Below are positions 2,268-29,102 of a DNA stretch of 64,000 bases, in pieces; position 1 is the stretch's first letter; every line of letters begins with the position of its first letter. The notes beneath the pieces were generated by a model. That model was not told the origin of the DNA and searched no databases. It saw only the letters and a list, made by a program, of their open reading frames with translations. Position numbers and translations under genes: made by a program. This DNA comes from an uncultured bacterium (lineage in GTDB: Bacteria; Zixibacteria; MSB-5A5; GN15; FEB-12). Location of the stretch: assembly GCA_965372795.1 (NCBI GenBank), contig CBDVDR010000003.1:128495-192494 (forward strand). The letters run 5' to 3'.

Positions 2268-2381
2268 GTATTAAAATAAACAGATTTGGATGAACTTAGC
2301 AATAAAATTAGTTGTTGTAAAAAGAGAAGAAACCATTTAATTGTTATATCGAGTACATTGGTCTATTAAGGGGAATGAATC

Positions 2382-3668
2382 ATGCCAGAGATATCAGATC
2401 AGGAATATAACCGCCTGAAACAGGCAGTCGAAGAATTGACGACTTTAAACAAAATTGCTAATTCAATAAATTTAACAATGACCGTCGATCAAATTTCAAG
2501 TAATATCGTCGAGCATTGTCGAAAGAGAGTTAAAGCGGGGCAGGGAGTAATCTTTCTTTTGGATGATGAAGAAAAAGTGGAAGACCGCTTTAAAACATTT
2601 GTCAGAGATATGGCTCCTAAAAAAAATCAACTCCCCTTTCATCTCAATAATAGTCTTTTGGGATGGATGTTAAAAAACAAAGATATTCTCATTAGCAATA
2701 CGCCCAACAGTGATGATCGGCTGCGAGGTGTCGATTTTGATAAACTTGGAATGGATTCTTTAATTGCCGCTCCTTTATTGTCGCGACGGGGATTGATTGG
2801 CATTCTGGTATTGTATAATAAAACCGGTGGGAATGGATTTGAAGAGCTTGATAAAAGATTTCTTGGAATTGTCGGGACTCAGGTTACAAAGGTAATTGAA
2901 GATGCTCGTCTGATTGATAAAGAACGTAAACTAAATAGCATCGAAAAAGAAATAAAAGTCGCTAAGACTATTCAGGAAGGATTTCTTCCCAAAAACAATA
3001 TTGTTAATGATCAATTTGAAATATATGGTTTTAATATTCCTGCTAAAGAAGTAGGCGGTGATTATTATGATATGATTCCTCTTGATGATAATCGGGTCTT
3101 TGTATCACTTGGTGATATTTCGGGCAAAGGAATGCCGGCAGCCTTGTTGACGGGCAATGCCCAAGCGGTGTTACGTTCACAAATTCATCAATCAAGAGAT
3201 ATTAATCTACCTGAATTAGCTGATTGCTTAAATAATCTTATTTACCAATTTACAAGTTCAGAACAATATATAACGGCTTTATTTGGAATTTTTAACAAAG
3301 CAGAAAATAAACTTTCTTATATAAACGCCGGACACCTTCCACCGACAATTGTTAGGAATAATGGCACGATTGAAAGCCATGACCTTGCGAATTTGGTTAT
3401 CGGAGTAGTGCCGGATGCCCCCTTTAATACCTACGAACTATTTCTCGAAAAGGGAGAGTCAGCTTACATTTTCACAGATGGTATAACCGAAGCTATGAAT
3501 GAAAATGATGAACAATTTGGAGATGATCGGTTTAATGAAATATTAATTAAGAATATTGGTAAAAAGCCTGAACATGTCTGTTCTGAAATCCGTAGAGAAA
3601 TTATTCGGTTTCGAGGAAAAGCTGAACAATCAGATGACATAACTGTCTTAACAATTAAAAATGGTTAA
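2382..3668 (+). CDS. GAF-domain PP2C-type (SpoIIE/RsbU family) serine phosphatase
   Basis: 428-aa ORF. The C-terminal half carries PAKEVGGDYYD, GDISGKGMPAA, TDGITEA and DDITVLT, typical of SpoIIE/RsbU PP2C phosphatases. The N-terminal half looks like a GAF sensor. It is divergent from the kinase at 1-2267. Confidence 0.85.
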   Translation: MPEISDQEYNRLKQAVEELTTLNKIANSINLTMTVDQISSNIVEHCRKRVKAGQGVIFLLDDEEKVEDRFKTFVRDMAPKKNQLPFHLNNSLLGWMLKNKDILISNTPNSDDRLRGVDFDKLGMDSLIAAPLLSRRGLIGILVLYNKTGGNGFEELDKRFLGIVGTQVTKVIEDARLIDKERKLNSIEKEIKVAKTIQEGFLPKNNIVNDQFEIYGFNIPAKEVGGDYYDMIPLDDNRVFVSLGDISGKGMPAALLTGNAQAVLRSQIHQSRDINLPELADCLNNLIYQFTSSEQYITALFGIFNKAENKLSYINAGHLPPTIVRNNGTIESHDLANLVIGVVPDAPFNTYELFLEKGESAYIFTDGITEAMNENDEQFGDDRFNEILIKNIGKKPEHVCSEIRREIIRFRGKAEQSDDITVLTIKNG

Positions 3669-3681
3669 TATTTTAAACTTC

Positions 3682-6411
3682 TTACGGACATACCATAGGT
3701 GGCGCACCGCCATCAAAAACGTATCTCACCAGAAACGCTAAATCAATAATATTAATTTCCCCTTCTGGATCACCATTGACATTACTTGCATCACTACATG
3801 GCGGATGAGGACCGCCCAGGAAAAGATAGTCGACAAGAAATGTTATATCACTCATGTCAAGCACGCCCTGCGTGTCACCATTAACATTGCCAGTAAATCC
3901 AAAGCAACAAACTCCGGTAATATATACCGCAAATGTTCTTGAATAGTCAGACCAACTGTTACCATCGTTATATTTATAGCGCCAATAAAATACAGAATCA
4001 TTTCCAAGTGGAACTTCCGGTTGGTACTCAGGAAGAAGCAAACCAGTTATGTCAAAAATAGGATTTCTGAAATCATAATAACGATCAAGTTGGATTTGGT
4101 ATTCTTCGATATTGGCAATAGTATCAACCTGTCGATCCCATTCAAATAAAGGTCGAGAACGATCAGTAGGCATTCCATTGGGAGGTTGGATTGATGAAAT
4201 TTCTTCAACCGTATAATAAAACACTAAACTATCAACCAATGTCTTTATATTTCCGGAGGCGTTATAATTTAAAAATGAAATTGCCTGCTGTGATCCGTTT
4301 ATTCCTATAGCGATTGACATTGTTCCTTCATCGCTTGCTTCCGGTTCCATATCAGCGACAATAACGTATTCTCCATATTCCAAATTATAATCCATAGTTC
4401 TATCGTCGAGTGATCCATCACTGTCAACATCAAGTTCCTGAAATTCAGAACCGGCAACGGTTTGAATATCCTCGGAAATAATATAGCCATCAGGATTGTA
4501 GACTCTTACGGTTGTCTCGTCAAAGGCGGTAACAGTCATTTGATCAATTAGTATATCGGCACTGTCAGAAGGAGTAGTTGCCACCAACAAATCACCCCCA
4601 TTAAGGGCGCCAGAAATAAAATCAAAATTACCATCCCGATCTAAATCCAAAGATGCCAGAGCATATGTTTGTGAATTACTGGTTTGAAGATCAACATAGC
4701 TTGGTCCTTCAAAATTACCGCTCCCATCTCCAAAATAAATCTCAAGCTTTTGGGTAGTGCCATTGGCAATTATCATTTCCAAATTCCCATCCCGATCAGC
4801 ATCAGCAACAGCCAAATTATAGGCAATCCCATACACTCGAATAGTATCAGATTTTAGCAATGAACCGGTACCATCTCCAAGAGCATAGGTAATCATGCTT
4901 TCATTTGTTGAGTTTGTCAATGGAACCACCTGGGCAAAATCACAATTACCGTCATCATTAAAATCAACAACGATAGAAGCAGGAGTCAAATCAATTTTTG
5001 TATCACCAACAAAAATTGAAACTGATTGTTGAAATCCTCCATTGGTATCGTTGAGTAAGATTTTTGTCGAATCTCCATCTATACCGATAACGTCATCATA
5101 TCCATCATTGTTAAAATCACATGAATTGACCGCTTTAAAATTTGTACCAAGCGAAATTCCGGAATTAAAAACATTTAGATCATTGCCATAACGAATTTGA
5201 TCCGGAGCAATGATCAAATCAACATAAATATCAGAATTAAAATGACCAGTAACGAATGAAGGTGCGTTTAGTTCCAATAGGATATTTGAATATTTACTGG
5301 AAGCATTTAAGTTGGTGATCGGAATTGATTCTATATCAAAATTACGATTTCCAAGATTGTATAGGATATAAATATTATTAAGTGTGACAGCAATTATATC
5401 AACTAAGGTATCAGCATTAACATAACCAACATCTAATGCCGCTTGCTTTATCGCGAGATAACTTATCGGTTGTTCCGGATTTGATTCACCCGTACCAAAG
5501 GCAATAAACAATCCTTCAATTGAATTTCCGGTATAAATTATATCGGTATGGTTGTCACGGTCAAGATCAACCGTTTTAACATAATAAATATCAGCCGAAT
5601 CATTGCCAACAATTTCATATGGCAATATCGAGCTGTCACAATGATGTAATATTTCAATAAAGAAACAATCGTTTGCAGATGAGAAATTAACTGATTCACT
5701 CGGATTACAAGCCGAGTTCGGTTGTTCACCGGCTTCGGGAGCTCTTTCACCTGCATATTTAACGCGTACACTCAAACTTCCATAACTGTAAAGGGTATCA
5801 ATGCCACCAATAGAAAAACAGGCCAATCCGGATTCATCTGTTACAGCAAACAGATTCGGTGATTCTCCGGCATCAAGCCCGCAATCATCAAACCCCGGAG
5901 ATAATTCCAAAGTCCTGCCAGCTAATGGAGCCAATGAGCCGTCTTCGCACTCCTGATATAAGCCGGCACAAAATTCGATTACACTTGATGACGATAGAGT
6001 GTCAGGGCATACCAGTCCATTAAAAGTTGTTTCAAATTGAAGGATGGTTGAGCTGCTATTTAAAAATGTAGAAGTACCTAATCCTGTATTTGGATCAGTT
6101 GCACGAAATTCAATATTTTCAACACTTGAAAGATCATTAGTTAATTTCCAGTCAAGACTGAAACTTCCCTCAGAATCACTAATTACTGATTGACTCTGAT
6201 GAACTGTGCCAGCCTGATTGTCAGAGGTATAGTAAATCTCGTCAATTTGCAAATTTGTTAATTCAGAAAATAATTTGCCTTCGATTAAAATAATATCTCC
6301 GGAGAAATAGCTGTTGCCAATAAGTTTCAAATTAGCAGACATCAATGGAACAGCAAGAAAGACTATTAAAATATTAGACAAAAAAATTCTTAACCCATTT
6401 GGGTTATTCAT
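3682..6411 (-). CDS. Secreted FG-GAP/VCBS-repeat protein with C-terminal type-I dockerin-like module
   Basis: 909 aa with an N-terminal hydrophobic signal (LRIFLSNILIVFLAVPLMSA). It has many D-x-D/N-x-DG-x-x-D loops (DLDRDNHTD, DFNNDGYDD, DADRDGNLE, DLDRDGNFD) typical of FG-GAP beta-propeller blades. The last 69 aa (nt 3685-3891) hold two copies of NVNGD...(I/L)D(I/L)xFLVxY(L/V)F, which is a dockerin duplicated Ca-binding segment. Confidence 0.75.
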   Translation of the reverse strand: MNNPNGLRIFLSNILIVFLAVPLMSANLKLIGNSYFSGDIILIEGKLFSELTNLQIDEIYYTSDNQAGTVHQSQSVISDSEGSFSLDWKLTNDLSSVENIEFRATDPNTGLGTSTFLNSSSTILQFETTFNGLVCPDTLSSSSVIEFCAGLYQECEDGSLAPLAGRTLELSPGFDDCGLDAGESPNLFAVTDESGLACFSIGGIDTLYSYGSLSVRVKYAGERAPEAGEQPNSACNPSESVNFSSANDCFFIEILHHCDSSILPYEIVGNDSADIYYVKTVDLDRDNHTDIIYTGNSIEGLFIAFGTGESNPEQPISYLAIKQAALDVGYVNADTLVDIIAVTLNNIYILYNLGNRNFDIESIPITNLNASSKYSNILLELNAPSFVTGHFNSDIYVDLIIAPDQIRYGNDLNVFNSGISLGTNFKAVNSCDFNNDGYDDVIGIDGDSTKILLNDTNGGFQQSVSIFVGDTKIDLTPASIVVDFNDDGNCDFAQVVPLTNSTNESMITYALGDGTGSLLKSDTIRVYGIAYNLAVADADRDGNLEMIIANGTTQKLEIYFGDGSGNFEGPSYVDLQTSNSQTYALASLDLDRDGNFDFISGALNGGDLLVATTPSDSADILIDQMTVTAFDETTVRVYNPDGYIISEDIQTVAGSEFQELDVDSDGSLDDRTMDYNLEYGEYVIVADMEPEASDEGTMSIAIGINGSQQAISFLNYNASGNIKTLVDSLVFYYTVEEISSIQPPNGMPTDRSRPLFEWDRQVDTIANIEEYQIQLDRYYDFRNPIFDITGLLLPEYQPEVPLGNDSVFYWRYKYNDGNSWSDYSRTFAVYITGVCCFGFTGNVNGDTQGVLDMSDITFLVDYLFLGGPHPPCSDASNVNGDPEGEINIIDLAFLVRYVFDGGAPPMVCP

Positions 6412-6853: not shown

Positions 6854-7432
6854 ATGGATAAAAACATTAAAGGCACCCAAACAGAAAAGAATTTGCTGAT
6901 CGCCTTTGCCGGAGAATCTCAGGCAAGAAACAGATATACATATTATGCCGGCGCTGCCAAAAAAGAAGGCTTGGTGCAGATTTCTGAAATATTTGCAGAA
7001 ACGGCCAATCAGGAAAAAGAACATGCCAAAAGATTTTTCAAATTTCTTGATGGCGGTGAGGTACAGATTACCGAAACATTTCCTGCCGGTAAAATTGCAA
7101 CTACCCTTGAAAATTTAAGAGACGCCGCTGCCGGTGAAGAACATGAATGGACCGTGATGTATCCTGATTTTGCAAAAGTAGCCAGAGAAGAGGGCTTTAA
7201 AAAAATTGCAACGGCTTTCGAGGCTATTTCAATTGCAGAAAAGCAGCATGGTAAACGCTACAAAGAACTTGCTGATAACCTTGAAGCTGGAAAAGTTTTT
7301 AAAAGAGATGGCAAAGTTGTTTGGCGATGTAGAAATTGTGGCTATTTGCATGAAGCTCAAGAGGCACCAAATTTATGTATTGCCTGTTTACATCCTCAAG
7401 CACATTTTGAATTATTAGGTGAGAACTGGTAA
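6854..7432 (+). CDS. rbr: Rubrerythrin (diiron four-helix bundle plus C-terminal rubredoxin-like Cys4 domain)
   Basis: 192 aa. N-terminus KGTQTEKNLLIAFAGESQARNRYTYYA, then EKEHAK and E-x-x-H diiron ligand pairs. The C-terminus has CRNCGY...CIACLHP (CxxC...CxxC). Confidence 0.9.
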   Translation: MDKNIKGTQTEKNLLIAFAGESQARNRYTYYAGAAKKEGLVQISEIFAETANQEKEHAKRFFKFLDGGEVQITETFPAGKIATTLENLRDAAAGEEHEWTVMYPDFAKVAREEGFKKIATAFEAISIAEKQHGKRYKELADNLEAGKVFKRDGKVVWRCRNCGYLHEAQEAPNLCIACLHPQAHFELLGENW

Positions 7433-10941: not shown

Positions 10942-11385
10942 TTATGATTCATCCTCTGTGATTGCATTATAAAATTTTAGTTTAAGCTCTTCATTATCCA
11001 TGTCATCATTTATGACAGCACAGATAATCTCATGCAAGAAATCTTTCTCAATTTTCCCAGCGGCAACATGATAACTTACATTTTCCATCTCCTGAATAAA
11101 TCTTCCTGCAACAAACACATATCCATTGTAAATGAGAAATTGTGCACCAAGAGCTATAGCAATTCGCTTATTACCATCTTGGAAACAATGAAAATTACAT
11201 GCAGAAAAAAACAAGTGCGTTAGTTTTTCTTCAAATGTCAAATAATATTCATCATTTTGTATATGTTGTAATGCACTCTGCAGAGCGCCAGTATCAATAA
11301 TACCAAGGGTCCCTCCGCCACTAACTTTAACAGTTGTTTTATGAATATCAATTGCTTGTTCAAGCGTGAGATAGACGAATGTCAC
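10942..11385 (-). CDS. doc: Doc (death-on-curing) type Fic-fold toxin
   Basis: 147 aa. The catalytic motif HCFQDGNKRIA matches the Doc variant HxFxDGNKR of the Fic motif. N-terminus LTLEQAIDIHKTTVKVSGGG...IDTGALQSAL is typical of Doc family toxins. The GTG start shares one nucleotide with the TAG stop of the upstream gene. Confidence 0.85.
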   Translation of the reverse strand: MTFVYLTLEQAIDIHKTTVKVSGGGTLGIIDTGALQSALQHIQNDEYYLTFEEKLTHLFFSACNFHCFQDGNKRIAIALGAQFLIYNGYVFVAGRFIQEMENVSYHVAAGKIEKDFLHEIICAVINDDMDNEELKLKFYNAITEDES

Positions 11386-12416
11386 TATTCACGCTCCTTG
11401 AGACGCTTGAATACTTCCTTAGATTCCTCAAGTCGATCAATGAGTTCCTTGCTCTTTTCACCAAGAAAACGCTCAAAATCAGCTGAGTCTAATGGAGTGA
11501 CATAGTCTTTTAATTGTAAGTGTAAAGCATCACGGAAAGCAAGATCACGGCTCGCCATCTTGGAGCGAGCCTTTTCAACAAGTGGTTGCCAGAGTGATTG
11601 GGTCTCAAACTCATCAAAAAGCTTATCTACTTCCCATGAAGTTAGTTTACGTTTTACTCTCTTGAATGCTTCTTCTATAACTTTTGCAAAACCAAATTCA
11701 TAAGACGAAATTAAATCCAATATCTCTGAATAGAAAGTATCCCTTACATTGTCTTTTTCTTTAAGTTTGAGAATCTTTCTATATTCCTTTGCATCTTCCT
11801 TAAAAATGCTAACATATATTTTATTTGTATAAGCGGGATATTTGAAATTACCCATATCAACATAGTCTCTCAAGGCGTCGGTAAATTCTTTGCGATAATT
11901 TTCTTCCTTGAAGTATGAGATGATAAAATCTTCATCTCGCTGATTGATATACTTAGTGCCACCACCTGTTTTTTTATTTTGTGTATCAATTACAATATCA
12001 AGGATTGCTTGGCGTAGTAGCCTTGCTCGCTCACTCTCTGTAATAAGCATGGCAAGGTTGAGAAAAGCCTTAAAGTCAAAGATCCCAAGAGCATTTATAG
12101 TGTGCAATTTTTTGCCTACGAAATCAGTTTCGTCATCATATTGTTCTTTGACTGCTAATTTGTAGTTCTGTAAGGACTTACCTCGTAAAACCTCGTAACC
12201 ATTTTGCTTTAATTCAGTTTCATACTTTGAGAGATAATTATCAATTGTTCTCGAAGTAACTCCAAAGAACTCAGCAACTTGCTCCTTAACAAGAGTTAAT
12301 TTTCCTTGATATGCAACTCCTTGCAGGTTAGTAGCTTTCTTAATTTCATCAATTGCATAAGGATTATTTAGAATATTCTGGCGATCGATATCTGAATTGG
12401 TTAAATCTTTACTCAT
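11385..12416 (-). CDS. 343-aa helix-turn-helix protein of unrecognised family; putative partner or antitoxin of Doc
   Basis: Intact ORF translationally coupled to doc. The N-terminal segment LVKEQVAEFFGVTSRTIDNYLSKY reads as an HTH. The rest is helical and charged, and I recognise no catalytic motif. It is reminiscent of the RhuM/Bro/KilA-type DNA-binding genes seen next to Fic/Doc genes inside R-M loci, but I cannot assign the family by eye. Confidence 0.6.
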   Translation of the reverse strand: MSKDLTNSDIDRQNILNNPYAIDEIKKATNLQGVAYQGKLTLVKEQVAEFFGVTSRTIDNYLSKYETELKQNGYEVLRGKSLQNYKLAVKEQYDDETDFVGKKLHTINALGIFDFKAFLNLAMLITESERARLLRQAILDIVIDTQNKKTGGGTKYINQRDEDFIISYFKEENYRKEFTDALRDYVDMGNFKYPAYTNKIYVSIFKEDAKEYRKILKLKEKDNVRDTFYSEILDLISSYEFGFAKVIEEAFKRVKRKLTSWEVDKLFDEFETQSLWQPLVEKARSKMASRDLAFRDALHLQLKDYVTPLDSADFERFLGEKSKELIDRLEESKEVFKRLKERE

Positions 12417-12417
12417 T

Positions 12418-12624
12418 TCAATCTTCCTTTATAGTCCGAAACACGATTTGTTCAGACTTCTCGCGACCTTGATTACGTGTCGCGAAAGTCTGAACAGCGT
12501 AGGCTTTAAGTTGATCATTTCCTTGAAACCATTGGTCAAGGCATATAAACTGTATTGGCTCTGCTTCTGCTATAGCGTCAATCAGCTCTTTTGTCACTTC
12601 ATCTTCAAGGCAGATAAGGAGCAT
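12418..12624 (-). pseudogene. C-terminal stub of an N6-adenine (Mod/type IIG-like) DNA methyltransferase
   Basis: The 68-aa ORF ends ...IQFICLDQWFQGNDQLKAYAVQTFATRN...IVFRTI. This resembles the conserved tail (xxLDxxFxGNDQLKxNxxxx...FRTI) I associate with Mod-type methylases. There is no catalytic domain upstream. An in-frame TGA lies 5 codons before the Met, and only AT-rich non-coding DNA follows to 12872. Its stop is 1 nt from the start of the 343-aa gene. Confidence 0.45.
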
Positions 12625-14099: not shown

Positions 14100-15269
14100 A
14101 TGAACTTTAAGAAAAAGCCCTTTCAATTTTCTGCTATAGTTGGACAGGAAAAAATAAAAACTGCCTACTTAGCAAATATTGTTAATCCTAATATTGGCGG
14201 CTTGCTAATTAGTGGTCCCAAAGGAACCGGTAAAAGTACTATTGTTCACTCGGTTGATTCAATTCTTCCAAAATACAATGCTGTCGATGGGTGCGATTTT
14301 AATTGTGATCCTGACGCTCCTCAAAAATTCTGTTCCAATTGTAATGAATTATCAGAAATTTTACCTATTAATAAGAAAATGCGAATTGTCAATCTACCCC
14401 TGAGTTGCACCGAAGATCGTCTGTTGGGCTGTGTTGATATTGAAACTCTTCTGAAAACAGGCACAAAAAAAATCCAGGTAGGAATTCTCGGTGAAGCAAA
14501 CCGAAATATTCTATATGTTGATGAAGTAAACTTACTTCCAGATCACTTAGTAGATGACATCCTTGATGCTGCTGCTTCTCCATGGAATACTATCGAGCGG
14601 GATGGAATCTCTATTACCCATCCTGCCGAGTTTATTTTAATAGGCACAATGAATCCCGAAGAAGGGGAATTGCGACCGCAAATACTTGACCGGTTCGCAC
14701 TTTGTATAAAAGCTGAATCGATTCATGATCCTGCTCAAAGAGTTGAGATTGTCAAACGCACGCTTATGTATGAAAACAATCCTGATAAATTTATACGCAA
14801 CTTTGAAAATGAAGAAGCAACTCTGAAAACTGTTATATCAAAGGCACGTAAAATTTTAAATAAAGTTATGATTGATGAGGAGTTTTTGATTGTCGTTGCC
14901 GAAGCTAATGCAAAATTAAAAGTTGATGGACAACGGCCGGATATTGTGATTGTTAAAACAGCTCAAACAATTGCTGCCCTTGATGAACGAACCATAGTTG
15001 ATGAAAAAGATGTTTTATTGTCGGCAGAGTTAGCTCTGTCACATCGCACCCGTGATGGCGGGCTGCTGGAACCTCCGACACCGGATGAAATCATAGAAGC
15101 CTTTTCACCATCTCTAAAAAAAAGAAATATCAAATCTGAGAGTTCAAAGAAAAAATTTGTAAATACTTCCGGAAGCCTTGACAAAGATGTTGATAAGTTT
15201 ATTGACAGGGAAAACTTAACCAGTTCTGAAAAAAGTGCCGACGACTCAGAAACCGAAAAAAAAAAGTAA
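14100..15269 (+). CDS. ChlI/BchI-type AAA+ chelatase ATPase subunit
   Basis: 389 aa. FQFSAIVGQEKIKTAYLANIVNPNIGGLLISGPKGTGKST (Walker A), ILYVDEVNLLPDHLVD (Walker B), ERDGISITHPAEFILIGTMNPEEGELRPQILDRF (sensor/Arg finger region). It is collinear with BchI/ChlI as I remember it. It ends in a Ser/Lys/Glu-rich tail and the codons GAA AAA AAA AAG TAA. Confidence 0.85.
   Translation: MNFKKKPFQFSAIVGQEKIKTAYLANIVNPNIGGLLISGPKGTGKSTIVHSVDSILPKYNAVDGCDFNCDPDAPQKFCSNCNELSEILPINKKMRIVNLPLSCTEDRLLGCVDIETLLKTGTKKIQVGILGEANRNILYVDEVNLLPDHLVDDILDAAASPWNTIERDGISITHPAEFILIGTMNPEEGELRPQILDRFALCIKAESIHDPAQRVEIVKRTLMYENNPDKFIRNFENEEATLKTVISKARKILNKVMIDEEFLIVVAEANAKLKVDGQRPDIVIVKTAQTIAALDERTIVDEKDVLLSAELALSHRTRDGGLLEPPTPDEIIEAFSPSLKKRNIKSESSKKKFVNTSGSLDKDVDKFIDRENLTSSEKSADDSETEKKK
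15260..15266 (+). promoter_or_regulatory. Candidate -1 ribosomal frameshift (or transcriptional slippage) site A_AAA_AAG within an A10 run, immediately 5' of the ChlI stop codon
   Basis: In the zero frame the codons are ...GAA AAA AAA AAG TAA. A_AAA_AAG (15260-15266) is the same heptamer as the E. coli dnaX -1 frameshift site. The -1 frame is open from 15230 and continues without a stop into the VWA ORF through 16333. Confidence 0.5.
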
Positions 15270-15415
15270 AAGAAAATTATTCCCCGACAGCAAATGATAT
15301 TCGTACTGAAGAAATTAATTATTCCACAAAATCAAAAAACAGTAAATTTGATTCAATTAAACAATCAAGTAGATCAAAACTAAATATCCCACAATCATCA
15401 ATATCTGATAAAAGA

Positions 15416-16333
15416 TTGTTTCCAACTCTTGATGATTTTTATAAAAAGACAAGAACTTCATTATATAATCTGCTCAAGCAATTACGACGTTCAAATGTTA
15501 GATCAGCTCGGGGGAGCCGGAAACGTAGTCCGGTTGTCTCGTTAAATACCGGAAGGAATATCAGAACAATTAAATATAATAAAGGGAAAAACAGTTTGGC
15601 TCCGGTACCGACTATTGTAAAATCAATTTTGAACAACGGCTATAATATATCAAACAAGCGACTAAAAATTACAGATAATGATCTTGTCGGATGGCACCGA
15701 ACCGAATATGAAAGCCTGACTTTGGTATTGCTTGTCGATGTAAGTAAATCCACCTGGCCGTTTATTGAAGTATTCAAAGAGATACTGCAATCATTAACCG
15801 CGTATTTTGTGCGACATAATGATCGGGTTGGGATGATTTCACTGCAAGGTCTGCAGGCGCGCATCTTTAATCATCCAACTCACAATGTCAGAGTAGTAGC
15901 GCGGGGGCTGGGGAAATTAAAATTTCACGGTGAAACGCCGCTTGCTGATGGTTTACAAAAGTCATTGAATATGGCGAAAATTGAAAGAACTAAAAACCCC
16001 GGTTCAAAATGTTTGGTTATTTTGCTAAGTGATTGTTATCCCGAACCGGTTGCCCGGGGATGTGATAATCTTTTTGAGGATCCAGCTTATAAAGAATCAC
16101 TCAATTCTGCTTCAATATATAAAAAAGAGGATGTTACCTTATTAGTCATCAATCCTATGTTTGAAACTGAGGATGCTAAATTACCGGGAGAAGTTCTAGC
16201 TGAAAAAATTGTAAAAGCAAGCGGCGGGAAATTGATTAAACTTATCCGCCCGCATAACCGAAGACACCTTCGCCCCACCCGTGATGAGATGGATAAAATT
16301 CTTCGAGGTATAGAAACTTCGATGAAACACTAA
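15416..16333 (+). CDS. von Willebrand factor A (VWA) domain protein, ChlD/BchD C-terminal-like; probably the 3' part of a frameshifted ChlD-like gene
   Basis: The track ORF starts at a TTG with no Shine-Dalgarno, but the frame is open from 15230. MIDAS motif DVSKST (DxSxS) sits in LVLLVDVSKSTW. GETPLADGL and VILLSDC are typical of the VWA fold of chelatase D subunits. Confidence 0.8.
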   Translation: MFPTLDDFYKKTRTSLYNLLKQLRRSNVRSARGSRKRSPVVSLNTGRNIRTIKYNKGKNSLAPVPTIVKSILNNGYNISNKRLKITDNDLVGWHRTEYESLTLVLLVDVSKSTWPFIEVFKEILQSLTAYFVRHNDRVGMISLQGLQARIFNHPTHNVRVVARGLGKLKFHGETPLADGLQKSLNMAKIERTKNPGSKCLVILLSDCYPEPVARGCDNLFEDPAYKESLNSASIYKKEDVTLLVINPMFETEDAKLPGEVLAEKIVKASGGKLIKLIRPHNRRHLRPTRDEMDKILRGIETSMKH

Positions 16334-21716: not shown

Positions 21717-22364
21717 TTGTCTCAAATATTTCCCAAATGGACTAATGCACTTCCGCTAATATTAGCTGGAACAGTACTAATACTTTTTGTCTCGGTGGTT
21801 GGATTTTTCTGGTATTTTGGTTCGCCAAAATTCACCGATGTTGGTTACCGGCCGATTCAACCGGTGGCTTACAGCCATAAACTTCACGCCGGTGACTTAG
21901 GCATTGATTGTCGCTACTGTCATGTTGCGGTTGAGAACACCGCGGTAGCTTCGGTGCCGCCAACACAAACTTGTATGAATTGTCATACGCTGGTAAAGCC
22001 GGACAGCGACAAATTGAAACTTGTCAGAGAAAGTTGGACCACAGGCAAACCGATAGAATGGGTCAGAGTCCACAAAGTTCCTGATTATGCCTATTTTAAT
22101 CATAGTATTCATATAAATCGCGGCGTGGGTTGTATTACCTGTCATGGCAATGTTGCTGAGATGGAAGAAGTTACTCAAAGTGAACCGCTCAGCATGTCAT
22201 GGTGTCTTGATTGCCATCGTAACCCGGCACCAAATCTTAGACCGGTTAATCAGGTTACTAATATGAAATGGGAACCTTCCGATGGACACTTGGAGAAAAT
22301 GGCTTTGCTAATTAAAGAAAAGAAAATTTCTCCACCAACTGATTGTACAGGATGCCACCGATGA
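21717..22364 (+). CDS. actA: Alternative complex III subunit ActA, pentaheme cytochrome c
   Basis: 215 aa with an N-terminal TM anchor and five CxxCH motifs (CRYCH, CMNCH, CITCH, CLDCH, CTGCH). TTG start. Position is immediately 5' of actB. Confidence 0.8.
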   Translation: MSQIFPKWTNALPLILAGTVLILFVSVVGFFWYFGSPKFTDVGYRPIQPVAYSHKLHAGDLGIDCRYCHVAVENTAVASVPPTQTCMNCHTLVKPDSDKLKLVRESWTTGKPIEWVRVHKVPDYAYFNHSIHINRGVGCITCHGNVAEMEEVTQSEPLSMSWCLDCHRNPAPNLRPVNQVTNMKWEPSDGHLEKMALLIKEKKISPPTDCTGCHR

Positions 22365-25333
22365 AAAAAAATCTGAATATAAATGCCAAGGGTAAAGATT
22401 ACTGGCGTTCGCTTGAAGAATTATCCGGGACAGAAGAATTTAATGATTTTCTTTATCGGGAATTTCCCAAGGGTGCCTCGGAGTTAAATAATAACTGGTC
22501 GCGCCGTAATTTCATTACCATGATGGGTGCGTCACTTGCCCTCGCCGGATTAGCTTCCTGTCGCAGACCTGAAGAAAAAATCGTGCCTTATGTTAAAGCC
22601 CCGGAAGAAATTATCCCGGGACAGGCGCTGTTTTATGCAACCAATATGCCCTTTGGTAATTCTTCTTACGGGCTTGTTATAGAAACTCATGAAGGACGCC
22701 CGACTAAAGTTGAAGGAAATAAATTACATCCTTCATCACAAGGTTCAGCGCATACTTTTGCATTAGCATCGATGCTTGGATTGTACGATCCTGATCGTTC
22801 CGGCAAAGTATATAAGGGCAAAGAAGAAAAAGAGTGGGCTGATTTTGTATCATTCTGGAATGATAAATCAACAGAGTTTGAAACCGGCAAGGGTGAAGGG
22901 TTGGCAATTTTAAGCGAATCATATTCATCGCCTACCATTGCAAGGTTACGCAAAAAATTTGAAAAGAAATTTCCAAAAGCAAGCTGGGTTGTATATGATC
23001 CGGTGAGTGATGAAAATATATATGAAGGTATCAAAATTGCAACCGGTGAATCGTTCAAACCGGTTTATGATTTTGGCAAAGCTGATCTGATTCTTTCACT
23101 TGATTCTGATTTTCTGCAAAATGATAGCGAGAGCTTAACTGCGACCCGAGGATTTGCAGAGGGTCGTAAGATGCATACTGAAAATGATAAAATGAATCGC
23201 CTTTATGTAGTAGAGTCAAGCCTTACCCTGACCGGTGGAATGGCAGATCACAGACTTAGAATAAAAAGCAGTGAAGTTTCAAAATTTACCTTGAATCTTG
23301 CTTTTGAGCTTAATCAGCAGGGTTTAAATATAAAAGGGTTAAATGGTTTAACAAACCCGACTATTCTTAATAATTCTAAATGGTCCAAATGGCTCAAACC
23401 GCTGGCGAAAGATTTGATTTTGTCTAAGGATCGTTCGGTGGTTACAGCAGGTCGTCGTCAGCCAAAAGAGATTCATGCTTTGGTGTTTGCTATCAATGAA
23501 GCTCTGGAAGCCAATAACAATATAGTGAAACTTTATAATTTTGATGATTCCGACTATTCAACAAGTTCAGATTTGTCAGAGTTAGTTACTAAGATGCGTT
23601 CCGGCTCGGTCAACACCCTTTTGATGTTAGGTGTAAATCCGGTATATAACGCTCCTGTTGATTTAAGATTCTACAGTTCCTTACAAAAAGTTGAAAATAA
23701 AATTCATCTTAATCTATACCGTGATGAAACTGCAAAATCTTCAAGCTGGCATATTCCGATGGCGCATTATCTTGAAAGATGGGGCGATGTCCGTTCTGTT
23801 GATGGTACCGCCGGTCTAATTCAACCGATGATTGAGCCAATATTGGGTGGCAAAAGTGAAATTGAATTATTAAGCTTAATTATAGATGGTAATGAAAGCA
23901 AAGGATACGATCTTGTTCAAGAATCCTGGACTTCATTACTAAAGGGTGATCTGTTCGAAACCAAATGGCGTCGAGTGCTTCATGATGGTTTATTAGAAAA
24001 CAGCCAGACAAAGCCTGAAAAGAAAAATTCAAATTCAAAGTCAATCAATGCCGCTCTCAATAATTTAACTTTTAAAAATTCAGAAGAAATAGAAATTGTA
24101 TTTGCATCCTCGGCATCATTATTTGATGGCCGGTTTGCAAATTGTGGCTGGTTGATGGAGCTTCCTGATTCGGTAACAAAGATTTCCTGGGATAATGTAG
24201 CGGTTATAAGCAAAAATACTGCGTTGAAGTATCAGCTTCAAAATAAAGATGTTGTTGTGCTTTCATTTGATGGCAAAGAACTTGAAGCGCCGGTTTGGAT
24301 TTTACCCGGTCATGCTGATAACTCTATTACTGTCGAGCTTGGATATGGTCAGAAAGATTTAGGCAGAATTGCTGACGGAGTCGGTTATAATGCTTTCCAA
24401 TTAAGAAATTCAACAAATCCCGATATTGGGGTTGGTCTGAAAATATTCAAAACCGGCCGCACGATGAAGATTGCCAATACGCAGGATCACAGCAGTATGG
24501 AAGGGCGACCGTTAATTCGTGAGGGATCATTAGAAGAATATAAAAAAAATCCTAATTTTGCTGAAGAGATGGTCAAACATCCGCCTCTGCTGTCATTGTG
24601 GGATGATCATAAATATGACAAAGGCAATCAATGGGGGATGTCGATAGACCTTAATTCCTGTACCGGCTGCAATGCTTGTACTATTGCCTGTCAGAGTGAA
24701 AATAATATTCCGGTTGTCGGTAAAGATGAAGTCGAAAAGGGTCGCGAGATGCACTGGCTGCGAGTTGACCGTTACTTCACCGGTGAAGTTGAAGATGCCG
24801 GTATGGTCACTCAACCGGTTGCCTGTCATCATTGTGAAAATGCGCCTTGTGAACAGGTTTGTCCGGTAGCTGCCACCACTCATGATGAAGAAGGATTGAA
24901 TACGATGGCGTACAATCGGTGTATTGGTACCCGTTATTGTTCAAATAACTGTCCATATAAAGTACGTCGGTTTAATTTCTTCAACTACACCAAAGATCTT
25001 CCGGAACTTATTAAAATGGCACAGAATCCTGATGTTACTGTTCGTTCCCGGGGTGTGATGGAAAAATGTACGTACTGCGTTCAGAGAATTAACACGGCCA
25101 AAATAAGTGCGAAAAAAGAAGATCGCGAAATTCGTGATGGTGAGTTTGAAGTTGCTTGTCAGCAATCCTGTCCGGCGAAAGCGATTTCCTTTGGAAATAT
25201 ACTCGACAAAAAAAGTCAGGTTTATAAAATGAAAAACAATAGTAGAACTTACCATATGCTGTCAGAGTTAAATGTCAGACCGAGGACTTCGTATCTTGCA
25301 AAAATAAGAAACCCTAATCCGGAAATGGCGTAG
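22361..25333 (+). CDS. actB: Alternative complex III subunit ActB (fused molybdopterin-like B1 plus FeS B2 domains), Tat-exported
   Basis: I chose ATG 22361 (ATGA overlap with the actA stop) over the track start 22343. Twin-arginine signal SRRNFITMMGASLALAGLASC. The C-terminal third has multiple Cys clusters (CTGCNACTIAC, CHHCENAPCEQVCP, CIGTRYCSNNCP, CTYCVQR...CQQSCP). Confidence 0.85.
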   Translation: MKKNLNINAKGKDYWRSLEELSGTEEFNDFLYREFPKGASELNNNWSRRNFITMMGASLALAGLASCRRPEEKIVPYVKAPEEIIPGQALFYATNMPFGNSSYGLVIETHEGRPTKVEGNKLHPSSQGSAHTFALASMLGLYDPDRSGKVYKGKEEKEWADFVSFWNDKSTEFETGKGEGLAILSESYSSPTIARLRKKFEKKFPKASWVVYDPVSDENIYEGIKIATGESFKPVYDFGKADLILSLDSDFLQNDSESLTATRGFAEGRKMHTENDKMNRLYVVESSLTLTGGMADHRLRIKSSEVSKFTLNLAFELNQQGLNIKGLNGLTNPTILNNSKWSKWLKPLAKDLILSKDRSVVTAGRRQPKEIHALVFAINEALEANNNIVKLYNFDDSDYSTSSDLSELVTKMRSGSVNTLLMLGVNPVYNAPVDLRFYSSLQKVENKIHLNLYRDETAKSSSWHIPMAHYLERWGDVRSVDGTAGLIQPMIEPILGGKSEIELLSLIIDGNESKGYDLVQESWTSLLKGDLFETKWRRVLHDGLLENSQTKPEKKNSNSKSINAALNNLTFKNSEEIEIVFASSASLFDGRFANCGWLMELPDSVTKISWDNVAVISKNTALKYQLQNKDVVVLSFDGKELEAPVWILPGHADNSITVELGYGQKDLGRIADGVGYNAFQLRNSTNPDIGVGLKIFKTGRTMKIANTQDHSSMEGRPLIREGSLEEYKKNPNFAEEMVKHPPLLSLWDDHKYDKGNQWGMSIDLNSCTGCNACTIACQSENNIPVVGKDEVEKGREMHWLRVDRYFTGEVEDAGMVTQPVACHHCENAPCEQVCPVAATTHDEEGLNTMAYNRCIGTRYCSNNCPYKVRRFNFFNYTKDLPELIKMAQNPDVTVRSRGVMEKCTYCVQRINTAKISAKKEDREIRDGEFEVACQQSCPAKAISFGNILDKKSQVYKMKNNSRTYHMLSELNVRPRTSYLAKIRNPNPEMA

Positions 25334-25355
25334 GATGGAAGGTATAGAAATTTAA

Positions 25356-26765
25356 GTGAGTACTGTTGCAAAAGATATAGCAGCTTTAAAAGCCAGAAAA
25401 GATGTTCTAATTCAGGGTAATCCCTCTTTCGGGAAAATTACCCGCGATATTTGTCATATTGCAGAAGGCAAGCCGAATCGCAACTGGTGGATTTTATTCA
25501 GCATCTCATTAAGTTTGACATTGGTATTATTTATACAACTTGGATACCTTTTCTGGGAAGGAATCGGTATTTGGGGGTTGAATAATCCTGTCGGATGGGG
25601 CTGGGCAATTGTAAATTTTGTTTGGTGGGTCGGTATCGGCCATGCTGGCACTTTGATCTCTGCGATTTTGTTTCTGTTAAGACAACAATGGCGAACTTCG
25701 ATCAACCGCTTTGCGGAAGCCATGACTATCTTTGCGGTTATATGTGCCCTGATGTTTCCGGCAATCCATGTCGGTCGTGTTTGGGTTGTGCACTGGGTGC
25801 TGCCAATTCCGAACTCGATGGCAATATGGCCGAATTTCCGAAGCCCGCTTCTATGGGATTCATTCGCGGTCGGAACATATTTTACCTGTTCGTTTTTATT
25901 CTGGTACACTGGCTTGATTCCTGATCTGGCAACTCTCCGAGATCGTGCTGTAACTCGCATAAGAAAACTTGTACTCGGAATTTTCTCGCTGGGATGGCGT
26001 GGTGGAAACAGACAGTGGAAACATTATGAATTGGCGTATATGATTCTGGCAGGTATTTCGACCCCGCTGGTTTTGTCTGTTCATAGTATCGTATCGACTG
26101 ATTTTGCAACTTCTTTGTTGCCCGGATGGCATACAACAATTTTCCCGCCGTATTTTGTGGCAGGGGCAATTTTCTCGGGCTTTGCAATGGTTATGACGCT
26201 GACTCTAATCACTCGCTCGGCTTTTGAACTAAAGCATATCATTACAATACGACATCTTGAGTTAATGAATAAAATTATGCTCCTGACCGGTATGATGGTC
26301 GGGTATGCCTACTCGATGGAGTTTTTCATTGCCTGGTATAGCGGGAACGGTTACGAACAGTTTGCTTTTGTAAATCGTGCTTTTGGTCCTTATGCCTGGG
26401 CATATTGGATTATGGTTTCCTGCAACGTCTTGGTTCCGCAGTTATTCTGGTTTAAAAAATTACGGACAAGTATTCCGATTATGTTTGCTGCTTCGATATT
26501 GATTAATGTCGGGATGTGGTTCGAGCGTTTTGTGATTGTCTCAACATTATCACGCGGATTTATTCCAGCGACCTGGGATTATTATAGTCCGACAATTTTT
26601 GATATTGGAATCTATCTGGGCTCTTTCGGATTGTTCTTCACCCTCTTTTTATTATTCATTAAATTCCTTCCGATTGTAGCGATTTCCGAAGTTAAAAATG
26701 TTCTGCCACAGGCTGACCCGCATCACAAACATATAGAAATTATCTCATCGGAAGTCAAAGCATGA
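25356..26765 (+). CDS. actC: Alternative complex III subunit ActC (NrfD/PsrC-like quinol-interacting membrane subunit)
   Basis: 469-aa polytopic protein with a GTG start. NrfD-like composition and position after actB. Confidence 0.8.
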
Positions 26766-27310
26766 AATATTTTAAAAAAGCACCGGATATTATGCTGGCA
26801 GAGATTCAATCTCCCGAAGAACTTATTCATGCCGCCGAAAAAATCTGTGAAGCCGGATATGAAAAATATGATTGTCACTCGCCCTTTCCAATCCATGGTA
26901 TGGATCAGGCGATGAAGCTCAAACGCTCGCCAATCGGTTATATTGTTGGGACAATGGGAGCAATTGGTTTATTGGGATCATTATTCCTCCAGTGGTGGAC
27001 CTCATCAGTTGATTACCCGTTAGTAATCTCTGGTAAACCTCTTTTCAGTTTTCAGGCTTTTGTTCCGGTAACCTTCGCCCTGACGGTTTTGCTGTCTGCT
27101 TTTGGAGCTTTATTCGGGATGCTTGGATTTAATAAGCTGCCCCAATTATATCATCCGATTTTTAATTCAGAACAATTTAAGAAATTTTCTGATAATGGTT
27201 TCTTTATAAGTATTAATGCGGATGATCCAAAATATGATGCTGAGGCAACTGCTAAGTTTTTGGAATCTATTGGCGGAACCAATGTGGAGGTTGTTAAAGA
27301 TGAAGATTAA
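26762..27310 (+). CDS. actD: Alternative complex III subunit ActD
   Basis: 182 aa. ATGA overlap with the actC stop, two central TM helices, and the conserved position in act clusters. Confidence 0.65.
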
Positions 27311-27911
27311 ATCCTCCAGAATAATAATTTTGTTGGCAGTCACAATATTTATAGCCGGGTGTTATCAGGGGCGTCCCTCAAATAAAACACCATTGCATTT
27401 TAATCCAAGCATGGATCAACAGAAAAAATATAAAACTCAATCCTCAAGTATGTATTTTGAAAACGGTTCGACTATGCGTCTTCCGGTTGAAGGTACCGTA
27501 GCCCGCGGTTTTCTTCGAGAAAATGTTGAGTATTATACCGGCAAAAATAAAAAAGGTGAGTTTATAAAAAAATCTCCGGTAGCAACTGATATGGCTTTGA
27601 TGCTCAGAGGTCAGGAGAGATTTAATATTTATTGCGCTCCTTGTCACGGTCGAATTGGACAGGGTCAGGGAATAGTTGTGAAAAAGGGCTTGCTGCCTCC
27701 GCCATCTTTTATGGATCCGAAAATCCTGGCTTATCCTGATGGACAAATTTTTGATGTCATTTCAAATGGTATTAGAAATATGCCATCCTATCGACATCAG
27801 GTTCCGGTGCCCGACCGATGGGCGATAATTTCTTATTTCCGTGCTTTGCAACGCAGTCAAACAGCAACTGCAAAAGATATTCCTGAAGATATTATGAAAA
27901 GTATGAGGTAG
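27300..27911 (+). CDS. actE: Alternative complex III subunit ActE, monoheme cytochrome c lipoprotein
   Basis: I prefer start ATG 27300 ([21 protein letters not shown], lipobox-like IAGC) to the track start 27216, which overlaps actD by 95 nt. Single CAPCHG heme motif and a distal Met region (NMPSY). Confidence 0.7.
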   Translation: MKIKSSRIIILLAVTIFIAGCYQGRPSNKTPLHFNPSMDQQKKYKTQSSSMYFENGSTMRLPVEGTVARGFLRENVEYYTGKNKKGEFIKKSPVATDMALMLRGQERFNIYCAPCHGRIGQGQGIVVKKGLLPPPSFMDPKILAYPDGQIFDVISNGIRNMPSYRHQVPVPDRWAIISYFRALQRSQTATAKDIPEDIMKSMR

Positions 27912-27920
27912 TTGATATAA

Positions 27921-29102
27921 ATGAAATGGGATGCTGATTCATTAAGAATTAACTCGGTCGGATCAATCGGTCAATTGGCACTTGTTGTCGGAATTGTCGG
28001 ATTGCTTGCCAGTGCCTATGGTTATACAACTGATAAAAGTCAGTTCATGTTTTCATATTTAACAGCCTTTATGTTCTGGGTGTCAATCAGCCTTGGTGCT
28101 CTGTTCTTTACTCTGGTGCATTACCTTGCCAATGCCAAGTGGAGTGTTGTGATAAGAAGAATTTCAGAAGCAATAGGAAGTACTTTTTCTATCTTGCTGA
28201 TTTTGTTCTTACCGATTCTATTCGGAATCCACGATCTATTTCATTGGAGCCACGAAGAGGTTGTTGCAGTCGACGAAATTTTACAATCAAAAGAAGGGTA
28301 TCTAAATCCCACCTTTTTCATTATCCGCAGTTTGGGGTATTTTGTTATCTGGATTTTTCTTTCACTGTTCCTCTTTAAAAAATCAACCAACCAGGATACA
28401 AATCCTCAGGATGACTTTTTAAAAAAGGTACGTAAAGTTGCGGCTCCGGGTATGATTCTATTTGCGTTTTCTATTACCTTTGCTTCTTATGACTGGCTGA
28501 TGTCACTTGACCCGCACTGGTATTCTACAATTTTCGGAGCGTATTATTTCTCAGGCTCATTCTTAGCCTTTTTATCATTCATGATTTTAATAGGAAAATA
28601 TTTTGCCAGTCGAGGTATCCTTAAAGATATAATTACTGATGAACACTATCATGATATTGGCAAATTTTTATTCGGCTTTGTTATCTTCTGGTCATATATG
28701 GCATTCTCGCAGTATTTTATTATCTGGTATGCTAATATTCCTGAAGAAACGGTTTGGTTCCTGAAACGGTGGGAAGGAAGCTGGGTCAATATGAGCCTGC
28801 TTCTAATATTCGGACATTTTGTAGCCCCCTTTATTTTAATGATTACAAGATGGTCAAAAAGAAATACGTTCATGCTGGTACTGATGGCTTTTTGGATTTT
28901 ATTTATGCGCTGGGTTGACCTGTATTGGCTGATCTTTCCGGTTCATAGCGAAAGCGGAGTGCATTTGTCTTGGATGGATGTCACGACTTTATTGGGTATT
29001 GGCGGTATTTTTGTATGGTTTGTACTATACCAGCTTACAAAAAATGCTCTAATTCCAATAAAAGATCCGGAATTGGGAACTTCTTTACGACATGTCAATT
29101 AA
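27921..29102 (+). CDS. actF: Alternative complex III subunit ActF (ActC-related membrane subunit)
   Basis: 393-aa polytopic protein in the last canonical position of the act cluster. Confidence 0.7.
   Translation: MKWDADSLRINSVGSIGQLALVVGIVGLLASAYGYTTDKSQFMFSYLTAFMFWVSISLGALFFTLVHYLANAKWSVVIRRISEAIGSTFSILLILFLPILFGIHDLFHWSHEEVVAVDEILQSKEGYLNPTFFIIRSLGYFVIWIFLSLFLFKKSTNQDTNPQDDFLKKVRKVAAPGMILFAFSITFASYDWLMSLDPHWYSTIFGAYYFSGSFLAFLSFMILIGKYFASRGILKDIITDEHYHDIGKFLFGFVIFWSYMAFSQYFIIWYANIPEETVWFLKRWEGSWVNMSLLLIFGHFVAPFILMITRWSKRNTFMLVLMAFWILFMRWVDLYWLIFPVHSESGVHLSWMDVTTLLGIGGIFVWFVLYQLTKNALIPIKDPELGTSLRHVN

Follow-up and report, generated by a model that had tools for sequence, protein, structure and literature searches.

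A gene in a 64,000-nucleotide (nt) stretch of Zixibacteria DNA (hereafter the window, to whose numbering all positions refer, unless a locus identifier is given) very probably belongs to the published fs-chlD type, in which two products are obtained through a programmed -1 change of reading frame, here on a run of ten adenines (A10). Standard decoding would stop at the TAA at 15267 and yield a ChlI-like AAA+ ATPase of 389 amino acids (aa). The programmed -1 change on the A10 would bring a substantial fraction of translation into the frame of a downstream VWA domain; the shifted product would be a 744-aa ChlD-like protein, in which the AAA+ module of the short form is continued by a linker and a VWA/MIDAS domain. 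Both products may be expected to assemble into a ChlI/ChlD-type AAA+ motor-adaptor complex.

That the window gene is a further instance of a known recoding family, with a mechanism already published, is well supported. Antonov et al. 2013 (PMC3711429) described a Mg-chelatase cluster of 23 -1 frameshifted genes from bacteria and archaea, three of them validated. In the review by Atkins et al. 2016 (PMC5009743), A_AAA_AAR is reported as the conserved shift site, under purifying selection, with the caution that the chelatase name may not indicate the true ligand. Kuznetsov et al. 2022 (PMC9227772), citing Antonov 2020 (doi 10.1093/molbev/msaa081), place fs-chlD in all major phyla; the same paper includes genomes without the large subunit and without a B12 or chlorophyll pathway. 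An earlier note on this DNA, made from the sequence alone, had stated that frameshifting in chlD-type genes was already published, and these three papers bear this out.

Anatomy of the frame junction

The features of the gene relevant to the change of frame are the following.

14100-15269, plus strand: open reading frame 1 (ORF1), the zero frame, coding for a ChlI/BchI-like AAA+ ATPase and the start of the linker; termination product of 389 aa
15230-15269, plus strand: frame overlap of 40 nt, to which any shift is confined
15256-15265, plus strand: A10 homopolymer tract, the putative slippery element and the longest homopolymer of the window
15257-15263 and 15260-15266, plus strand: overlapping, in-phase -1 slip heptamers, A_AAA_AAA and A_AAA_AAG respectively
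15267-15269, plus strand: zero-frame stop codon TAA, immediately 3' of A_AAA_AAG
15266-16333, plus strand: -1 frame continuation, coding for a Ser/Lys/Asn-rich linker and the VWA domain; residues 390-744 of the fusion
15416-15418, plus strand: TTG, the VWA start assigned by the gene caller; sole ATG, GTG or TTG in the -1 frame from 15230 to the VWA domain

Read directly from the sequence, the 3' end of ORF1 is ACC GAA AAA AAA AAG TAA, with the stop codon at 15267-15269. The -1 frame is closed upstream by a TGA at 15227-15229 and stays open from 15230, through the VWA domain, to the TAA at 16331-16333, and 355 codons without a stop lie downstream of the shift. A slip on either heptamer leads to an identical peptide, EKKKV, so that the conceptual -1 fusion is one protein of 744 aa with the junction ...SETEKKK/VKENYSPTANDIR. 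All this agrees with the earlier note, every coordinate of which is correct: the end of ORF1, the zero-frame A_AAA_AAG with a stop directly 3' of it, the stop-free -1 frame from 15230 to 16333, and the two conceptual products, an AAA+/linker/VWA protein in the domain order of ChlD and, upon termination, a ChlI-like one. The trans-frame peptide named there, EKKKVKENYSPTANDIR, is cut by trypsin.

The linker reads as coding sequence in the -1 frame. Over the 49 codons from the stop to the TTG at 15416, this frame contains no stop, compared with 1 and 9 in the other two, and its codon-usage score is +11.3, compared with -9.2 and -84.8. A stretch of 62 open codons precedes the TTG in the -1 frame, in a sequence of 29% guanine plus cytosine (GC).

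The A10 is the only homopolymer of at least nine in the 64-kb window. The window is AT-rich, and A-runs are not rare in it (nine A-runs and four T-runs of at least 8, two A8 runs being located inside ORF1). Taken on the window alone, the A10 exceeds chance only modestly; the case therefore rests on comparative evidence, not on local sequence.

Conservation of the frame break in relatives

Among GTDB-representative genomes the best match reaches only 49-53% identity; close relatives were taken from metagenome contigs. A distant set of 80 relatives was collected from reference genomes, and in 39 of them a VWA part could be recognized downstream: it is in frame with the AAA+ part in 22, at -1 in 13 and at +1 in 4. 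When further loci are added, and the window's own copy is included, the totals are 25 in frame, 16 at -1 and 4 at +1.

An in-phase A7-A10 run, located 1-17 nt before the ORF1 stop, is present in all of the 21 loci split at -1 (A10 in five, A9 in eleven, A8 in two, A7 in three); besides that of the window, a -1 break at the corresponding tract is found in 20 independent assemblies. The four +1 loci feature no such A-runs. The -1-split loci come from independent metagenomes and phyla and range from 37 to 71% GC, including Chloroflexota at 52-71%. Runs of at least A7 are concentrated at the break: at the 21 loci, 21 are found in 1,323 nt of junction, compared with 2 in 22,443 nt of ORF1 bodies, and both of the latter belong to the AT-rich window gene itself. 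On these comparative data, the occurrence of the tract at the break is far beyond chance. The conservation of slip site and frame break in relatives, which the earlier note had proposed to check, is borne out by all 21 loci.

Examples of junctions in relatives, in the zero frame, are listed below.

L001: GAA AAA AAA AAG AAG TAG
L089: GAA AAA AAA AAT TAA
L002: GAA AAA AAA ACT CTC CAA TAG
L087: GAA AAA AAA AGC...
L088: GGA AAA AAA GCG TAG
L090: CCA AAA AAA GAC CGA GGC TGA

L001 is 73% identical to the window gene over the AAA+ part by tblastn, and 68% by BLASTP. In L010, from Gemmatimonadota, the junction is GAA AAA AAA AAG TAG, the same as in the window save for the stop codon. The six loci of this list are short close homologues: each encodes a terminal Lys run, has its VWA frame at -1 and carries an in-phase A-run shortly before the stop. 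The VWA starts called in relatives vary, being GTG, ATG or TTG, at 35-220 nt past the ORF1 stop codon.

As judged from these comparisons, the frame break would be neither a sequencing error nor the mark of a pseudogene: random error or decay is ruled out by the bias towards -1, by the placement of the tract and by its conservation.

As to the +1 loci, two Njordarchaeota metagenome-assembled genomes (L006 at ~7310-7320, L008 at ~2880-2890) share TTT TTT CGC in a short frame overlap, both with VWA at +1; the shared sequence is a possible site of +1 shifting. L009 and L016, the remaining +1 loci, resemble separate genes or distant pairs.

Protein domains and homology

ORF1 matches the Pfam families Mg_chelatase, AAA_5 and AAA_lid_2, as well as TIGR02030, with 342 bits; compared to the PDB, its residues 5-336 are matched by ChlI (8osf, 6l8d) and BchI (1g8p), with E values down to 6e-85. 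Two further features are needed to describe the fusion.

15722-16033, plus strand: VWA_2 domain with intact MIDAS (Pfam VWA_2, E = 4.6e-8)
14292-14342, plus strand: four-cysteine motif CDFNCDPDAPQKFCSNC, of the form C-x3-C-x8-C-x2-C, in an insert of the AAA+ module (ORF1 residues 65-81)

The MIDAS is formed by D547-x-S549-x-S551, encoded at 15737-15751, and is completed by T613 and D645. An end-to-end match of the 744-aa product to single-ORF homologues, another check proposed in the earlier note, was found in two ways. The fusion covers 1-640 of the 641 positions of TIGR02442 (putative cobaltochelatase), with E = 2.9e-157. In an alignment of 20 sequences, composed of the window fusion and 19 single-ORF homologues (alignment A1), it aligns end to end with all 19. 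Invariant in A1 are the ATPase residues of Walker A (G39-T47) and Walker B (D141/E142), N185, R192/R198 and R279, as well as the five MIDAS residues; at the position of the junction EKKK|V, the three closest fused proteins read VKKKV, VKKKQ and LKKKD. In a database search, the fusion matches thousands of proteins that have its architecture in a single ORF of 750-850 aa, many of them from Bathyarchaeia, along with a few proteins of ~410-440 aa, spanning the N-terminal half only.

The scores are all below the curated cut-offs of NCBIfam: 524.9 bits against 779.45 for TIGR02442, 261.4 against 499.55 for TIGR02031 and 342.1 against 466.95 for TIGR02030. The BchD-ChlD and BchI-ChlI models are both matched, and both under the cut-off.

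The four-cysteine motif resembles a knuckle that binds metal or Fe-S. Of the 120 best homologues, 109 contain a motif C-x2-4-C-x8-16-C-x2-C, and C65, C69 and C78 are invariant in A1. The insert is not known from ChlI/BchI sequences.

Putative slip signal and proposed mechanism

Known stimulators were sought around the A10. The 20 nt upstream, TGCCGACGACTCAGAAACCG, contain no Shine-Dalgarno (SD)-like stimulator, since neither GGAG nor GAGG nor AGGA is present. The 80 nt downstream (15267-15346) fold with a minimum free energy of -3.5 kcal/mol, no better than shuffled sequences (z = -0.29); the same holds for the 221 nt at 15200-15420 (z = -0.68). Rfam gave no match at E <= 1. No tRNA gene, sought for a tRNA-Lys that might help to gauge the slipperiness of AAG, is present in the window.

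E. coli dnaX, to which the earlier note had likened the site, depends on two stimulators, an SD-like element before the slip site and a hairpin behind it (PMC3711429). The likeness holds for the heptamer, which is the same; it fails for the SD-like stimulator and the hairpin, both lacking, and for the polarity, which is reversed. In the window gene the signal would consist of the A-tract and the stop codon right behind it.

Among the relatives, the A7 tracts (three loci) and the A8 tracts (two loci) all lie in phases giving X_XXY_YYZ. A downstream structure with z <= -2 is found only in L051 and L053; in L051, an A7 locus (5377 region), it is a strong hairpin with z = -2.9. Two A8 loci, L064 (7111 region) and L072 (2552 region), share an 8-bp stem, GCTGA(C/T)CG...CG(G/A)TCAGC, 7 nt past the run, and most A9/A10 relatives show no significant downstream structure. 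This distribution suggests that tract length is traded against a structural stimulator. Because of the X_XXY_YYZ phase of the short tracts and the hairpin of L051, a ribosomal component in the family seems likely; the pattern of tracts fits -1 slippage by the ribosome as the ancestral mechanism, with long tracts able to do without a helper. The mechanism proposed for the whole family is ribosomal -1 tandem slippage on A_AAA_AAA/A_AAA_AAG.

An A10 permits transcriptional slippage equally. Runs of 9 A/T have been used as a search criterion for RNA-polymerase slippage (PMC1088944), and dnaX of Thermus thermophilus slips on A9 (PMC3711429). In a member with A10, slippage by RNA polymerase would very probably add to that of the ribosome, one inserted A giving an in-frame mRNA. 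Reporters of the family, assayed in E. coli, gave 63% frameshifting with A11, 40% with A9 and 10% with A7 (PMC3711429); by analogy with the A9 and A11 reporters, a long-product yield of ~40-60% may be predicted for the window gene, should the shift occur in the source organism.

Fused relatives keeping the tract

The tract is not restricted to split genes. Among 23 single-ORF relatives, 8 have a single run of A8-A10, located each time in the linker; the linkers add up to 10.7 kb, and no such run is found in 34.8 kb of domain-coding sequence. In the clade closest to the window gene, all ten members keep an A7-A10 run, seven being split and three fused. Linker A-runs of in-frame relatives are located as follows.

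L084, 1947-1955: A9
L085, 9116-9125: A10
L091, 4125-4133: A9
L011, 7168-7177: A-run
L070, 997-1005: A-run
L030, 7060-7067: A-run

In each of these six, a stop in a shifted frame lies 0-3 codons from the run. In L091 (CTA AAA AAA AAG GAT TAT AA) a -1 slip would lead to a stop after two codons, an arrangement like that of dnaX; L084 has GTAG right after the tract, and its +1 frame reads AAG TAG, like the window. The tract may, as these arrangements suggest, give a short product in fused genes too.

A broader interpretation is possible, if doubtful: the poly-A tract would be kept whatever the frame state, with changes of 1 nt flipping the gene between a split form, where a slip gives the long product, and a fused form, where it gives the short one, in a largely transcriptional two-product switch serving an orphan AAA+/VWA complex devoid of CobN/ChlH. 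If true, the family would provide a naturally occurring two-product switch that works in either frame state; such retention of the tract may already be covered in Antonov 2020.

Alternative explanations

Some observations weigh against a programmed change on the A10. None of the searches for a downstream structure, an upstream SD or an Rfam match revealed a stimulator, though a downstream structure is described in the fs-chlD literature as usual, if not obligatory. Two A8 runs in slip phase lie inside ORF1, at 14465-14472 (ACA AAA AAA ATC) and 15116-15123 (CTA AAA AAA AGA), where a -1 shift would result in termination after 6 or 4 codons and in truncation only; they may represent background slippage that is tolerated, or may give rise to truncated products. 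A10 tracts are error-prone in replication and sequencing. A second contig with an identical ORF1 probably stems from the same assembly and is therefore not an independent confirmation. Finally, the reporter efficiencies were obtained with other genes, in E. coli.

The alternative closest to the proposed mechanism attributes the long product to transcription only, with RNA polymerase adding one A or dropping two and translation being conventional. It is a sub-variant, not exclusive of programmed recoding, and as a full account it seems rather unlikely. It would fit the A10, which is beyond the length from which bacterial RNA polymerases slip, the absence of ribosomal stimulators from the window gene, the climb of reporter efficiency with tract length and the single linker runs kept by fused relatives. 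Transcription does not, however, require the X_XXY_YYZ phase, constant in A7 and A8 tracts, nor the hairpins found 7 nt downstream at some short-tract loci; tracts ending in AAG and followed by a stop, as seen in several lineages, are moreover a classical ribosomal context. An error of homopolymer assembly or sequencing, the true gene being an ordinary single-ORF chlD type with A11, is very unlikely. The length of the run and the in-frame state of the closest fused homologues (L084, L085, L091), effectively one 1-nt indel from the window, speak for it; against it, the break recurs in the 20 other assemblies, -1 prevails over +1 by 16 to 4, a zero-frame stop is at most 17 nt away at every -1 break, and the feature is conserved in published work (PMC3711429, PMC5009743). 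Random errors are disfavoured, since they would give both signs and keep no nearby stop.

Two explanations remain. According to one, the change occurs in the DNA, either at a hypermutable contingency locus with a phase-variable long form or in a recent pseudogene. Long A-tracts do slip during replication (PMC1088944, discussion), and relatives switch at this very tract, some being in frame and others out of frame; yet the catalytic and MIDAS residues are all kept in the two halves, the downstream frame is free of stops for its 355 codons, the split state is conserved across phyla, at odds with decay, and phase variation is not needed. This explanation is as improbable as sequencing error. According to the other, the least credible of all, two separate genes are present, and the VWA protein starts at the TTG, or by reinitiation, without any fusion. 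Gene callers annotate it so, here and in relatives. The earlier note had argued that the VWA ORF lacks a start and an SD of its own: the TTG is indeed the sole candidate and no SD-like sequence was found upstream of it, but the argument is weak, because only 16 of the 41 long ORFs of the window have an SD-like motif and ORF1 has none, so that the lack of an SD does not exclude initiation. What tells against two genes is the 62-codon extension of the -1 frame upstream of the TTG, in GC-poor sequence that scores as coding, the inconsistency of called starts in relatives and the in-phase A-tract, which would be left without explanation. In A1, in addition, single-ORF homologues have an internal LFSS or LFDP where the window gene has the TTG; this codon more likely stands for a Leu within the conserved motif LFPTLDDFY, and as a start codon it is almost certainly spurious.

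Locus context and large-subunit partner

The window belongs to a 732-kb metagenome scaffold (ENA ERZ23498685, ZORZ22-1 scaffold_2), and nearly all named best matches of its ATP synthase beta subunit come from Zixibacteria, at 82-88% identity. The fs-chlD-type gene is preceded by a gene for a NapH-like Fer4_5 membrane protein and followed, on the opposite strand, by a zinc-type alcohol dehydrogenase. No CobN/ChlH-type large subunit is encoded within 14 kb upstream or 48 kb downstream, as far as the window extends, since it contains no ORF of at least 1000 aa; none was found on the contigs of the closest relatives. Distant relatives (45-52% identity) adjoin CobN genes, with PF02514 scores above 1200 bits. 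The "two chelatase subunits" of the earlier note are a reading from homology: no CobN/ChlH is encoded in the window, and the scores are under the NCBIfam cut-offs. Because of the missing CobN/ChlH, the label "chelatase", and with it the biochemical role of the complex, would apply to the window gene on the basis of homology only.

No neighbour gene is shared within the close clade: Fer4_5 is found here, and SpoIIE, S8 peptidase, DUF6754, UvrC and DAG kinase elsewhere. Beside the -1-split relative L010, at 1799-5248 on the minus strand, lies an IcmF-like fused B12-dependent acyl-CoA mutase (B12-binding, MeaB, MM_CoA_mutase), the sole hint of cobalamin near any -1-split locus.

Other parts of the window may be mentioned. 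Just upstream of the Fer4_5 gene, the minus strand carries, at 10943-12624, a Fic-domain gene (147 aa) and then ORFs of 343 and 68 aa, with no recorded Pfam match; the group may be a small toxin or defence module. The products of an operon at 21717-29102 include a multihaem cytochrome c of 215 aa and an Fe-S protein (Fer4_11) of 996 aa; with its further ORFs, the operon looks like alternative complex III or a related quinol oxidoreductase. The A8 run within it, at 22364, was considered as a recoding site and rejected: a start and a stop codon simply overlap there as ATGA, with Lys codons next. A scan of the window for promoters and terminators gave counts at the level of shuffled sequences and was uninformative.

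Comparison with known systems

The described gene leaves the present understanding of recoding unchanged. Its annotation would change, from two called genes (389 and 305 aa) to one recoded gene with a long product of 744 aa, and the fs-chlD recoding family would be extended to Zixibacteria. If the A-tract and the adjacent stop are the whole signal, such a stimulator-free case may help to separate ribosomal from transcriptional slippage. The gene also bears on the role of a ChlI/ChlD-like motor with no large subunit nearby, as in the "stage 1" genomes of Kuznetsov et al., which it resembles in that no large-subunit gene is seen near it.

With fs-chlD genes it shares a ChlI-like AAA+ ORF upstream of an overlapping VWA ORF at -1, an A_AAA_AAR/poly-A site in the overlap just before the stop, the existence of single-ORF fused homologues, and short and long products with a common AAA+ module. 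It differs in its host, Zixibacteria not being among the phyla named in PMC3711429, PMC5009743 and PMC9227772, in the lack of a downstream stimulatory structure, and in its protein, a divergent branch with 525 bits against the TIGR02442 cut-off of 779.

E. coli dnaX features the identical zero-frame A_AAA_AAG and two products, sharing an AAA+ N-terminal module within one complex. There, however, the shift generates the short product, in the window gene the long one, and the two dnaX stimulators are absent here; the fused relative L091 resembles dnaX in layout more than the window gene does. Genes expressed through transcriptional slippage, such as Shigella mxiE, with T9, and insertion sequence (IS) elements (PMC1088944), likewise carry a homopolymer of at least 9, as found at the frame junction of the window, and in mxiE slippage is needed for the longer product; the short-tract relatives in the fs-chlD family, in contrast, show phases and hairpins of the ribosomal type.

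Compared to ChlI/ChlD (BchI/BchD) and CobS/CobT, the motor-adaptor subunits of class I ATP-dependent chelatases, the window gene has the domain order of ChlD, with Walker A/B, sensor and arginine residues that are all intact and, at the C terminus, a VWA domain with MIDAS; its distant relatives adjoin CobN. It is distinguished from them by scores under the equivalog cut-offs, by the absence of CobN/ChlH from the window and from the contigs of the close clade, and by a long product whose AAA+ module appears, from its residues, to be catalytically intact.

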